This document shows positions 276-59,200 of a stretch of DNA of 64,000 bases, piece by piece. This DNA is from Antedon mediterranea (lineage: Eukaryota > Animalia > Echinodermata), in contig NC_092680.1 of NCBI RefSeq assembly GCF_964355755.1, positions 18,423,045-18,487,044 on the forward strand, written 5' to 3'. Position numbers and translations under genes: made by a program. The notes under the pieces were generated by a model. The model did not search any database and was not told the origin of the DNA. It saw only the letters and a list, made by a program, of their open reading frames with translations. Position 1 is the first letter of the stretch; each line of letters begins with the position of its first letter.

Positions 276-29771
<29,496 letters not shown>

Positions 29772-53200: not shown

Positions 53201-56200
53201 TTGATTGGTCAATTTGTATATATTAGGGGAATTAACTGGTCAATTTGTATTCATTATTCATAAATTATCTCTTCAGAATTTACAGTAACAATGACACTTG
53301 ATCCTAACCAGCCAGGCGAGTCAAGAACTGTTTTTATGGAAAACGAACTTTCTGAAATTCAAACTTCTGTTACCTTAAATCATGGGGCAGATTATGATTG
53401 TATTGAAGAGACAGCCTATATACAGGTAGGAAAAAGTGACAAATTTGGGCTACAGCTATGGTTTGTGGAACATCAGTTTATCTGAGTCTTCTCGAATAAG
53501 GACTATAAACCATAGGTCCAGTGTACACATCTAGCTCATGTGCACTTTAAAGAACCTAGTACATCAATCGAGACGAGTAGTGGGTGGGGTTACACCGGTG
53601 TACTAGCCACTGATCATAACTGGGCTTTCTGGGAGATCAGTATTTAACTGAAGAGGTTACCCAGTATAAACAAATAAACAAAAAATATAGTAAGTCCTGT
53701 TACTCTGCTTAAATGTTCATATGGGTGTAAATTTCTTCCTGCTCCACGTGTCTCTGGAAATATTAATTTATTTACATATTTATTTCTTTTTATAGACACA
53801 TATTGCAGATAAGCTAACCCCTATTGGAATCAGTATGACTTTTTCCCCAAATAATAAGCAAATCGGCAGTTCTCTTCGTCCTATAATTGATCAAAATGCA
53901 GAATTGCCCAGTTCACAGGTAAATATGTGCTAAGATAGATTGTACTATAATAAACCGTAGGTACACATTTTGCCATGTGCACTTTAAAAAACCCAGTTTA
54001 TCATTCAAGATGAGTTGTCATGACCCAAAACAATTGATATTCTTATTTTTGTTTACGATGTGTATGTTTTTTATATGTGTAATATGTTTTGATATTATAT
54101 GTAGTGTACAGAAAGCAAATTTGTGATATTTTATATATATTTTATAGACAAATAAATGCACATTCATATATAGAAATTAATTAAAATAATTATAATTGAG
54201 TTGCTGTATATATAACCCCTCATATCAATAATAAACACCATTCCATCCCACTATGTATATTTTTGAGTTTAATCTTTTTTATAACTTAGGTGTACTTCTT
54301 GAACAGTTGTGAAAACAATGTATGTATTCCAGATCTGTCTATAATAGCTGTATCGTAAGTGTCAACAAATAAAAGTTTAATACCCTAGTACTTAGTAGGC
54401 TATATACCGATAAAGTATGCATTGGCATATTAGTTCTGCATACCTAGTGTAAAATGGTATAGATATCGTAAATGCATTAAATTAAATCCCTATGACTGTG
54501 ATTTCTTTGGAACAACCAAAATGTCCCCAGAATAGCGATTGTCTGTAGCTTTAAAATAGTATGTATCCCATTAATAGAGGTGACTTCTGAATAGCAATTG
54601 TCTAGTTTTAAAACATACATTATGTATCCCATTAATAGAGGTGAATTCTGAATAGCAATTGTCTAGTTTTAAAACATACATTATGTATCCCATTAAATTG
54701 AAGTGACTTCTGAATAACGATTGTCTGTAGTTTTAAAACATACATTATGTATCCTATTAAATTGAAGTGACTTCTGAATAGCGATTGTCTGTAGTTTTAA
54801 AACATGCAGTGTGTATCCCATTAAATTGAGGTGACTCCTGAATAATGTTTAATTTACTATAGCGCAAAAAATGAATAGGGGTTGTCTGTAGTTTTAAAAC
54901 ATACAGTATGTATCCCATTAATAGAGGTGTTCCCAGAATAGCAGTTGTCTAGTTTTGAAACATATGTATGTGTCCCAACGAAGTGTTTCTACTGACAGTA
55001 TCACAAAGGTCGTCTGATCATGTTTAGGCTTGATTAATAAATTATTTTTATATAATGTACAGTATATAATTTTTATACCAATAAAAGTGATTATTCTTAA
55101 AACCCTTGTAGGCAATTGGACACAGTGACAATTGGTGACAAAGAGGGGCTTGCAATCAACATAACTGTGGAGAACAAAGGTGAAAAAGCGTTCAAATCCG
55201 TTCTCAAATCTGACTTACCTTCAGGTTTCGGATTGATAAACGTACGCCAATCAAAAATCACGGTACGTAGTATCCATAGTATATAACCTGGTATGGGGTA
55301 CATTTTAAGTAGGGACAAGCTCATAACAGTATGAATGAGACCATTAATTATCCCTAGAGCACAACATTTTGTGAATATAGTGGAAAGCCTGTATATTGTT
55401 TTTGGTGAGAATCCAAAGATTGAAAAAAATGGGCTATGATTTACAGCAATAAGCACAACAAGAAATGAAAGCACTCAGAAACTGAGTGAAGTACTTGGCA
55501 AAATTTAGCCACAGAGGGCCACATGTTGATATTTCAGCCCATGTTAAAAAAATACAAATTTTTCTTTTTTTTTATTTGTGAAGTCATTAATAAACAGATT
55601 TTCTTGAATTTCAATAGTTCAAGTTCAAAAGTTATGTAAGTATATACTTATTTACACCGACAAATTCAAAACTATAACTTCAAAATTGTAGGTTTACATA
55701 AAAACAAAGCAAGTACTATATACTTGGCAAAATTAGTAATAAGTAAAAAGCATTTAAAACAGATAAACCAAAGCAGTGATAGTATTAGTTGCTAGAGGAT
55801 GGCAAAATTTCGCCCCCAATATATATATATATATATAATCCAATCTGCAGACAGTACTGTTTCGATCTTATTAGATCTCGTCATTGGAGCTCAGGTTTCG
55901 AAATGAAATCTACCGCAGAACTGGCACAATCTATAGGCTGACCCAGTTATGCGGGACATGGTACACCGATTATGAACACAAAGAGTGCACAAGCTCAACA
56001 AGCGTGCTCTGCAAAATATGTATATAAATATATATAAATGGAGCGACAAAACTCGCAAAGACAAAGAAAACCACTGGGAATTACTACTTAAAACTACAAA
56101 ACCTTTTGTAATTAACTTTAGGAACATACTCCCAGATCGGTAAAATTATTCCATTGACTACCTAAATTTAAATTTCAATATTAACCACCATTTAAGCTGT

Positions 56201-59200
56201 TTTTTAGTTTTATTCCAAAATTGTTTACAGTATATCTACATGTACCAAGCTATCTTCTACACAATACTATCTACACCCTCTATTCACCAGCCTTATGCCT
56301 CTTTTGTTTTATTTCTTTTATTCCTGTCCTCTCAGGCAGCGCTTGTATCTATCTGCAGTATCTTCACTTGCACTTTCGATTTATAACACATCGGGCATAG
56401 AAAATTTATTCTAAACCGCCCGGTACTATACTGAAATTTAATTAATTAATATGATAAAGATGAGGAAATCTGTGAGAATGAGAAAAAGTCGCCCCAACCG
56501 AGACTCGAATCCGGAACCTTCTGCTTGATATGCAGATGTCCTAACCATTAGACTACAGGGGCTTTCATGGTATTGTTCAAACTTGATTGGATAGCGACTC
56601 TTTAACATTCTCGGTGTGGTACGGCGGAACAGCACTAGTCCATCAAATGTACGCACGAGCACCAGAGATCAAATTGATATGCCCTCATCTATATATACTG
56701 TATATATATATCACTTGCACTGATGAAGGGCTAGTGTTGCCCGAAAGCTCTGTTAACTTTTCTGGCTGTTTTACTTTATCATTTTGATTTAGCTTTTCGC
56801 TTTTTTTTCCATTGTGACACAGCATTGTCATTTTTTCAGTATTTTGCCTTTGGATTTATATATACTGTATGTATATATAAACACATCAGGCAAAGAACAA
56901 TATTATAGATGTGTTCCCTATACAGTATATCCAATGGTGCTGATGATTAAAATACTAAGTACTAAGTAAATAAGTATGTTTGTACAGAAATATAAATTCT
57001 CTTTCTATTGTTACATTAATTTAAAAATGTTTTATTTTCAGGATATATTTATAGATTGTGGATTTGATGACAATAAATTAGAATGCGATATTGGCAACCC
57101 ACTGCCAGCTAAGAGGAAGGTATGTTTGTACAGTGCTTAATTACTTATTTTAATTTCTTGTCTTAAAGATGTAATAATGGTAGCATAATGATATCACCCT
57201 AATGGAATACTATTATTATTGGCCTATTTGATTTTTATTTCAGATAAGCATGGTTCTGTATTTGTCTGTTGATGACTTGAATGGTGATGACGACATGCTT
57301 TCTTTAATACTGACTGTTGAAAGGTAAACGAACCATACCATAAAAAAATACTTTGCAATTATATAAAATGGAAGTTTAACATTTGATTCTTGCATGATAA
57401 TGGAATGAGATAATATGGCTTAGCTAGGATGACCATGTGTGAGATCATACTCCCGGTATGAATAACTGTCACTGCTTCCTTTTGCTTGAACCCTTGCCAT
57501 CAGCGCAACCTCGTTGGCCTAGATGTATGAATGCCAGACTAAAGCTGAGTCCCACCAGAAAAGTATTCTGATGTACTTAGAGAAAGGCAATTAATTCAGA
57601 GTAGGGCGAACAAATTAAAATGTTATTGACTCAAAACTAAACTACTTAACATTATGAAAATTTACTGTCTGTAATCTGTAATTGTAAAAAAGTTTAGGTT
57701 TTAAACTTTTTTAAGATTGATTATGTTATGGTGTTATGTTAATTTGTGTCTTGTGCTTATGCCAAAACCGGTATAAATTCTCATGGATTTTGCAAAATAA
57801 CTAACTTCATTTTTCTATTTTTTCCCATAACAGCCAGAATACAGAAAATCAGACCACCAGAAACGACAATAATGCACAGATTGATGTAAAGGTAAAAGTT
57901 GCTGCTACGATTGAGTTAAAGGGGTAAGTAGCAGCTAAGTAGGCTCCTTAAACGACTGCAGTGAACTTGCCTTATATTTCTGGACATTGGTCGCATCACT
58001 GACCCTACCTTTACCTTGTTTTAAGGTATTTTTAGGCCAAAATTATTGGACCTGCTTTATTTAAGCCATGCCTTCACTAACCGTTAAGCTAGGTATTTTA
58101 TCGCTGTATTTCAAATCCCAAATATCTAACATCTAACACGCACAATTTTTAATTGATTCCTTTAGCATCTCTGTCCCAGAACAAGTTACATTTTCTGAAG
58201 ATCCACCAAAAGATGAGTCAAAAATTATAAGAGAAGAAGACATTGGACCTCTTCTTGTTCATACATATGAAGTAAGTTAATAAATGAATGCAGAGTGGTG
58301 GACATGTCCCTCATGTGATGTGCCCATATATGGACATGATGATGTCATATCACTACCATATTTGGGTATATCACTAACATATCTGGGCACATCACTTCGG
58401 GCCTGCCTCACTTCGGGCCTGCCTCACTTCGGGCCTGCCTCACTTCGGGCCTGCCTCACTTCGGGACTGCCTCACTTCGGGACTGCCTCACTTCGGGACT
58501 GCCTCACTTCGGGACTGCCTCACTTCGGGACTGCCTCACTTCGGGACTGCCTCACTTCGGGACTGCCTCACTTAAGGACTGCCTCACTTAAGGACTGCCT
58601 CACTTAAGGACTGCCTCACTTAAGGACTGCCACTTAAGGACTGCCTCACTTAAGGACTGCCTCATTTCTTAGAGTTTTGTTATATTATTATATGGCCTAA
58701 TGTAAATACAGATAAATTTGATACTATTTGCTTCACATCATGATTAATTAAACCTGTAGCTGTACTATTTTAGAAGTTTAAAAATAAAATGTTTTTGTTG
58801 ATAGGTGTTAAATCATGGACCAAGTAGAGTAGGAGTGACAGAAGTTGAAATCCAATGGCCGATGAAAACAACATCTGGAGAATATCTATTTTATCTAACA
58901 GAAGTGACAACAAACATGGGTCATATCTGTAGCGTGGCAGGTGGAGTTGATCCTGAGAATTTAACAGCATCAGTAAGTCGACAATAATTTCGAAAAATTC
59001 ATACATCCTTGTTGGACCAATGTTACTATTAATATCAGTATTGGATTGTGTAAATTACGTATATGTATTAGTATATCTGTCTGTATTGTATTGTCATATT
59101 TTATGTTTTATGCATTGTGTTATTTGGTACATTAGGTAAATTGTGTCTCCTTTTTAAATCCAATTACAACAACATTTATATTGTTAAAGAAAAGGAATTG

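Follow-up and report, generated by a model that had tools for sequence, protein, structure and literature searches.

In a 64,000-nucleotide stretch of the genome of the echinoderm Antedon mediterranea (contig NC_092680.1, positions 18,423,045 to 18,487,044; hereafter the window, in whose coordinates all positions are given), we find that an intron of an integrin-alpha gene holds the relic of a Penelope-type retroelement, with a hammerhead ribozyme on one strand and a tRNA-like gene on the other. The explanation that we favour, and to which we give, taken as a whole, slightly better than an even chance, is that the locus is a decayed partial-tandem insertion of this element, made up of two copies (A and B), and that the very abundant terminal repeat of the element, its pseudo-long terminal repeat (pLTR), joins a hammerhead, a hairpin and a backwards tRNA-like gene as one unit, in which the tRNA would work at the DNA level as a self-terminating RNA polymerase III (Pol III) gene.

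Other copies were read from public contigs aligned to the locus, taken from 5 of the 9 listed runs, and the summed depth of these contigs relative to single-copy sequence served as a rough proxy for copy number; one run, X6, is only guessed to be RNA, and its depth differences were not taken as evidence of expression. A preliminary description of this DNA had placed all the insertions inside one integrin intron, and this setting is supported by GT/AG ends and by a Pfam match to Integrin_A_Ig_2 (PF20805) on the upstream exon (55113-55262). We infer the boundaries of the intron (55263-57041, plus strand) from those ends and from the depth in X6, which is present at 57012-57123 and zero at 56900-57011.

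Within the intron, a TA-rich tract (56015-56037) forms the 5' junction of copy A, which extends over about 56036-56688 and begins with an open-reading-frame (ORF) tail and the 3' untranslated region (3'UTR) of the element (56144-56363, plus strand), whose depth is about 1,000 times single-copy over most of its length and low at 56228-56283. The pLTR start of copy A follows at 56364-56404 on the same strand. This segment aligns to 56711-56719, 56848-56859 and 56880-56899 of copy B, and is without both the 128 nucleotides that hold the hammerhead and its tail and 20 nucleotides of TA-rich sequence; the deleted repeat copy of the preliminary description is thus borne out. Similarly, the restart of the repeat with a period of about 495 bp is real, with 16 of 18 letters matching. 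A TA-rich junction (56689-56710), rare among other copies by depth in run X2, leads into copy B (56711-56899, plus strand), a short pLTR stub, delimited by depth, with hammerhead, pyrimidine-rich tail and hairpin, past which the depth drops almost to the single-copy level. Most likely, copy A kept the tRNA and lost the hammerhead through the 128-nucleotide deletion, and copy B has the hammerhead and no tRNA. The two copies, together with joints between the 3'UTR and the hammerhead in other copies, make up the partial tandem of pLTRs found in endonuclease-bearing (EN+) Penelope-like elements.

The ORF tail consists of the C-terminal 35 codons (56036-56140, plus strand) and the stop codon (56141-56143) of a 5'-truncated Penelope-type ORF for a reverse transcriptase (RT) with a GIY-YIG domain. 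A phmmer search with this tail gave three matches at E ≤ 0.001 among 1.84 billion proteins. One of these, P0003, is a protein of 906 amino acids with RVT_1 and GIY-YIG domains, whose closest named relatives are from sea cucumbers; 20 of 32 residues (63%) are identical between the ORF tail and its C-terminal end. The majority alleles at 56109 (92%) and 56111 (99% of X1 depth) increase the likeness of the tail to Penelope-type proteins. The GIY-YIG-like C-terminal peptide noticed earlier, with its stop at 56143, therefore matches the last residues of RT and GIY-YIG proteins, where EN+ Penelope-like elements carry their GIY-YIG domain; a Pfam search with the 44-amino-acid frame alone gave no GIY-YIG match. 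The telomerase-like RT is missing from the 5'-truncated window copy and present in P0003. A CX2-5CxxC pattern lies within the last 200 amino acids of 115 of the 126 retrieved homologues and is visible in P0003 and absent from the window fragment; this putative linker zinc finger may point to the Neptune/Nematis type. Word-based protein searches returned nothing for the ORF tail or for a host ORF, and integrase-like leads, which were the only output of the ESM Atlas, were rejected. A search with P0003 gave no locus in viral contigs and one in prokaryote genomes (L051, 1-4634). This contig of a bacterial metagenome-assembled genome contains a Penelope-type RT fragment (56% to P0003), is likely to be animal DNA contamination, and has neither similarity to the window pLTR nor a match in Rfam.

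The tRNA-like module lies on the minus strand at 56490-56562, where ARAGORN and Rfam report a 73-nucleotide cloverleaf with A and B boxes. It is the sole tRNA gene found by ARAGORN in the 64 kb, and its Rfam tRNA score is 51.6 bits (E = 3.7e-8 over the whole window). Two nucleotides past its 3' end is a T5 run (56483-56487, minus strand), a predicted Pol III terminator, which shows no substitution or indel at 8% or more of depth among the variants listed; the chance that an A5 run starts within 10 nucleotides of a random site is about 4%. In the window copy, 19 of the 21 stem pairs form and the B box is broken at position 53. Thus, of the minus-strand cloverleaf with boxes and TTTTT claimed in the preliminary description, the cloverleaf, the A box and the T5 run stand, but the B box fails in this copy. 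The majority alleles give all 21 pairs, through pair 6-67 (56557, 99.9% of X2 depth) and pair 53-61 (56510, 94-98%), and the latter allele brings back the B-box G as well. The variants listed at 8% or more include none in the anticodon loop, which makes A32 and the anticodon AUC features of the family. By general tRNA rules, A34 is avoided in split codon boxes, and the combination of A32 with A34 in such a box predicts that the RNA does not decode. The module has the cloverleaf and boxes of a decoding tRNA (with the B box intact only in the majority allele), and has neither a pyrimidine at position 32 nor an anticodon used by eukaryotes. A chance motif was rejected as a reading. A D-arm pattern had no match in prokaryote genomes, and the 50 loci found with a tRNA 3'-end pattern comprised 48 unrelated tRNA-Leu(TAG) genes and 2 that are not tRNA-like, none of them of the window family. 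Among 251 distinct tRNAs from these loci, the best isotype score, once the pattern-selected Leu(TAG) is set aside, is that of Glu(TTC), which is weak evidence from a prokaryotic and phage set.

The hammerhead of the pLTR, a minimal type I motif at 56717-56753 on the plus strand (core 56720-56750), was identified with a minimal descriptor that gives 2 strict matches in the window and averages 0.0 over 150 simulated sequences of 64 kb. It has an extra base after A9, a G10.1-C11.1 pair, a 4-bp stem II and a palindromic stem III of zero loop, and its stem I becomes Watson-Crick with the allele that 99.7% of X2 depth carries at 56753. At the level of sequence, then, the core placed here by the preliminary description fits both the descriptor and the features of Penelope minimal hammerheads. 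Because there is no loop 3, the ribozyme could fold only as a dimer, with a predicted cut after 56750; single-strand folding does not recover it, as expected for a dimer-type motif, and the Rfam search of the window did not report it at 56720-56750. With the ORF tail, the partial tandem and this hammerhead all found, the claim of a Penelope-like relic is upheld. Downstream, a hairpin at 56843-56894 (plus strand), with a TA-rich core and an AC-rich 3' arm, joins the hammerhead tail to the tRNA side. Its fold z score of -7.1 is inflated by the TA run, and its 3' arm is kept in both window copies; by analogy with a related element described below, it is a candidate internal start site for reverse transcription.

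By summed depth, the tRNA module is present in thousands of copies. In three runs from two organisms, the tRNA body stands at 5,110-12,514 times single-copy depth, its upstream flank (56563-56688, plus strand) at 6,552-15,527 times, the hammerhead at 10,844-22,398 times and the ORF tail at 898-1,637 times, all of them rough values; the tRNA exceeds the ORF tail 3- to 11-fold. The spacer between the hairpin 3' arm and the terminator (56405-56482, plus strand) is likewise high-copy (X2 depth of 139k-280k in bins 56417-56484). Depths of this order exclude a one-off insertion of a short interspersed nuclear element (SINE), and bridging contigs link the module to the hammerhead repeat, in keeping with the earlier view that it is no isolated SINE. 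The order of the parts in the family differs from that in the window. X2 depth in the upstream flank is 118k-133k to 56620 and 56k-62k at 56655-56688, but only 3.8k across the tRNA-to-hammerhead junction (56689-56705), compared to 65k-290k after it; TA-length variation may depress the 3.8k figure. From upstream, the hammerhead is approached through a pyrimidine-rich linker (agreement 0.56-0.58, with 37-64 contigs per DNA run at 56711). Other copies link 56335-56346 to the hammerhead start via varied linkers, and in 7 of the 12 rows listed, from 205 junction rows, the 3'UTR leads into the hammerhead start and no tRNA intervenes. On the other side, the end of the hammerhead tail (56864-56899) is joined to the beginning of the tRNA side (56400-56427) in 7 of the 12 rows listed from 60 (3 in X2 and 4 in X6), one of them at a depth of 662 in X6. 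From these bridging joints and from the hairpin 3' arm in both window copies, the most likely order of the family is 3'UTR, hammerhead, tail, hairpin, terminator, antisense tRNA and flank. The proposal that one pLTR unites tRNA and hammerhead therefore holds with respect to linkage but not to order, since the junction with the tRNA upstream is rare and the family has the tRNA downstream. Judged from these contigs, the tRNA is likely to be a fixed part of the same repeat unit as the hammerhead. In some copies elsewhere, a 73-nucleotide stretch of the flank (56613-56685) is tandemly duplicated, with joints from 56679 or 56685 back to 56613.

Several observations weigh against this explanation. 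No contig listed spans the whole unit, and the window copy is the only whole copy seen; the linkage comes from short bridging contigs, of which those listed in the DNA run reach a depth of only 19-47x, and the family can be traced only as far as 56688. Of six minor stem variants listed, four keep the pair and two break one (position 61 being judged against the majority G53), and these tables, which carry no haplotypes, contain no two-sided compensatory change. A C56-to-U change at a CpG in the B box accounts for 24% of depth in X2 and 65% in X6, which shows that decay affects many copies. The perfect majority cloverleaf could also stem from recent capture rather than from selection. If the module is such a passenger, one unprocessed tRNA transcript would have been captured backwards into the master pLTR by template switching of the RT, and would be functionless, with the T5 run as its captured trailer. 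The interval 56483-56562 is indeed the span that a pre-tRNA would cover, CpG decay of the B box is common, and the stem variants listed give no sign of covariation. We nevertheless regard a passenger as rather unlikely: the majority anticodon loop is non-canonical while the 21 stem pairs and the bases of the tertiary contacts hold. In addition, the linker upstream of the hammerhead varies, with a loose-end agreement of 0.56-0.58, whereas the tRNA region aligns at 80% or more, although this contrast is suggestive only. That a Penelope lineage keeps the antisense tRNA-like gene under selection, as a portable TFIIIC/Pol III chromatin barrier or as a source of RNA complementary to the template, is our tentative proposal, one that falls short of an even chance.

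The depth profile also bears on whether hammerhead and tRNA belong to one element. It might be supposed that the tRNA module is a minus-strand non-autonomous element of its own, with its 3' end near 56385 and about 20 nucleotides in common with the pLTR tail, and that the two were fused tail to tail by insertion into each other's TA tracts, the apparent hairpin being that junction. The stepwise fall of depth toward 56688 resembles the gradient left by 5' truncation on the minus strand; several long contigs exit the alignment at varied points from 56581 to 56637, and joints from 56657-56693 to 56868-56877 are restarts without a hammerhead. Contigs stop at varied points on the other side too (56464-56522), however, and the identical arrangement recurs in both window copies and in the seven junction rows listed, including the one at depth 662. 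Moreover, the T5 run would stop Pol III 100 nucleotides before the supposed 3' end, and an upstream flank of 125 bp is impossible in a Pol III transcript. A fusion of two elements therefore seems improbable to us.

In the single-unit explanation, the plus-strand RNA of the element would start near 56711, and the Penelope RT would copy it from internal start sites, either around the hairpin at 56864/56899 or near 56688. Such starts would yield many short copies that consist of the pLTR alone, as in B, together with partial tandems such as A with B, and no separate family would be needed to account for the surplus of tRNA relative to ORF tail. This model is drawn by analogy with PAc, the one Penelope element studied in vitro, which, according to the available text, begins reverse transcription within its RNA, downstream of the hammerhead at an AC-rich stem loop, and inserts at AT-rich DNA (PMC11167929). 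In the element RNA, the tRNA would be represented by its complement alone, whose fold is no more than a partial mirror of the cloverleaf, and the tRNA would be neither promoter nor processing site of the RNA that is copied; for this reason, a role as an RNase P/Z processing signal, one of the functions suggested earlier, is unlikely. In DNA, by contrast, intact A and B boxes would bind TFIIIC and TFIIIB and keep the repeat open or insulated, and the T5 run would halt Pol III before it made antisense RNA across the hairpin and hammerhead; the product of roughly 80 nucleotides would not decode properly. Intact boxes, a full cloverleaf and a terminator together fit a DNA-level role best.

An RNA-level role was considered in two forms, which even jointly we hold to be very improbable. 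In one, the Pol III product would anneal to its complement in the element RNA and prime or regulate reverse transcription, and perfect complementarity does follow from the layout; in the other, Pol III read-through would supply an antisense template, trimmed by RNase P/Z, in line with the antisense template proposed for rotifer Penelope elements (PMC3846280). Next to the tRNA 3' end, two joints (at 56490 and 56493) lead out of the repeat, but each is seen in a single contig only, and there is no sharp depth edge at 56490. Read-through is at odds with the T5 run, and priming by a small RNA with PAc, which, as described in the text available, primes from nicked DNA (PMC11167929).

The repeat is not an ordinary SINE, because it reaches about 125 bp upstream of the tRNA start; a Pol III transcript could not contain this flank, and is thereby excluded as the RNA that is copied. 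Upstream of the tRNA, depth is as high as in its body, so the element does not start at the tRNA 5' end; nor is there a same-strand promoter free of an intervening terminator, since tRNA and hammerhead lie on opposite strands and the T5 run follows the tRNA by 2 nucleotides. A classical SINE head was rejected on these grounds, as the preliminary description had argued. In Schistosoma, repeats named Sm-alpha and Sj-alpha likewise combine a tRNA-derived Pol III promoter and a hammerhead in a single unit, present in more than 10,000 copies (PMC6765202, PMC2770079), but there, in the sections available, the promoter precedes and transcribes the hammerhead, unlike the terminated, opposite-strand tRNA of the window, whose repeat includes the upstream flank. 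Animal non-LTR retrozymes (LTR, long terminal repeat) are also described, in the accessible portions, as short, non-coding, high-copy, of hammerhead type I and related to pLTRs (PMC7229834; bioRxiv 10.64898/2026.07.22.740005). They consist of head-to-tail units that each have a complete type I hammerhead, whereas the Penelope locus has a single intact hammerhead and other copies seldom show its head-to-tail junction (depth 3.8k, with 56k-290k on either side), although longer units that include sequence from outside the window are possible. The term tRNA is absent from the main text of the bioRxiv report, the part of that source that was covered. The Helenus and Cassandra terminal-repeat retrotransposons in miniature (TRIMs) likewise have a small-RNA gene in a retroelement terminal repeat, which in Cassandra drives transcription of the element; as presented in the text available, however, these are LTR elements with a primer binding site, a polypurine tract and target duplications of 4-5 bp, and with no hammerhead (PMC10886601). 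The Penelope ORF tail and the hammerhead point elsewhere than to a TRIM of this type.

The closest resemblance is to EN+ Penelope-like elements with minimal hammerheads, which share, in the portions available, the GIY-YIG C-terminal tail, the partial tandem, the 5' truncation and the TA-rich junctions (PMC4209133, PMC8557442), and whose minimal hammerheads have the same extra base after A9 and palindromic 15.2-16.2 (PMC4209133). What sets the window pLTR apart from them is that it includes a complete tRNA-like gene in antisense orientation, followed by a T5 run; in the available text, tRNA is mentioned not once in PMC4209133 and once, as the selenocysteine tRNA, in PMC8557442. PAc, a Poseidon element of the green anole, likewise has an AC-rich stem loop about 110-170 nucleotides after the hammerhead, AT-rich targets and a tail of 30-40 bp, and its description, as far as available, includes no tRNA (PMC11167929). 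The PAc ORF begins inside the hammerhead, whereas in the window the ATG at this place meets a stop at 56732-56734, where no variant is listed, and an ORF start inside the hammerhead was rejected. Penelope hammerheads, pLTR-derived retrozymes, Sm-alpha repeats with tRNA and hammerhead and tRNA-bearing Helenus LTRs are thus already in print. Within the literature available to us, we found no account of a pLTR that contains an entire tRNA gene, antisense and terminated, though a Repbase or Dfam consensus with this build could exist.

A second hammerhead, overlooked in the first reading, lies upstream of the relic at 55828-55901 on the minus strand. It has a palindromic stem III, belongs to a different repeat family and matches Rfam HH9 at 26.8 bits (gathering score 52). 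Its core C3 is lost in this copy; alleles at 55884 and 55887 that make up more than 99% of X1 depth bring back the core C and one pair of stem I. Its repeat (55828-56014, about 500-1,500x single-copy depth) lies between two TA tracts, in head-to-head orientation to the Penelope relic. At 10714-10750 (plus strand), in the region of a kinase gene, there is a third minimal hammerhead motif, again with a palindromic stem III. Hammerhead patterns used to look for further copies of the Penelope repeat had no matches in viral contigs and none in metagenome contigs. The kinase gene (4139-23277, plus strand), upstream of the integrin gene, is ROCK-like, with Pfam kinase, kinase C-terminal, Rho-binding, PH and C1 domains. 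An element of about 285 bp at 10908-11192 resembles a miniature inverted-repeat transposable element, with terminal inverted repeats of roughly 50 bp as read by eye, and weak miRNA-family matches at 8699-8850 and 15313-15455, far under the gathering score, are probably palindromic repeats. Introns neighbouring that of the relic in the integrin gene contain tandem repeats of about 61-64 bp and 16 bp (54519-54964 and 58360-58663).

tRNA genes are the targets sought by the Ty elements of yeast and the TRE elements of Dictyostelium; in contrast, the Penelope element described here would carry a tRNA-like gene of its own. Even if the module is passive, it would add thousands of false Asp(ATC) calls to tRNA annotation, and the ends of the copies would map the start sites of Penelope reverse transcription. 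If it is active, it would represent a new use of a Pol III gene in a Penelope repeat, distinct from SINE-type promoters, would place potential TFIIIC sites by the thousand across the genome, and would test the antisense activity proposed for pLTRs (PMC3846280). If, in addition, the module is kept by selection, some 10,000 Pol III sites would have been spread by the element, and the repeat would offer a handle on antisense transcription in Penelope replication.

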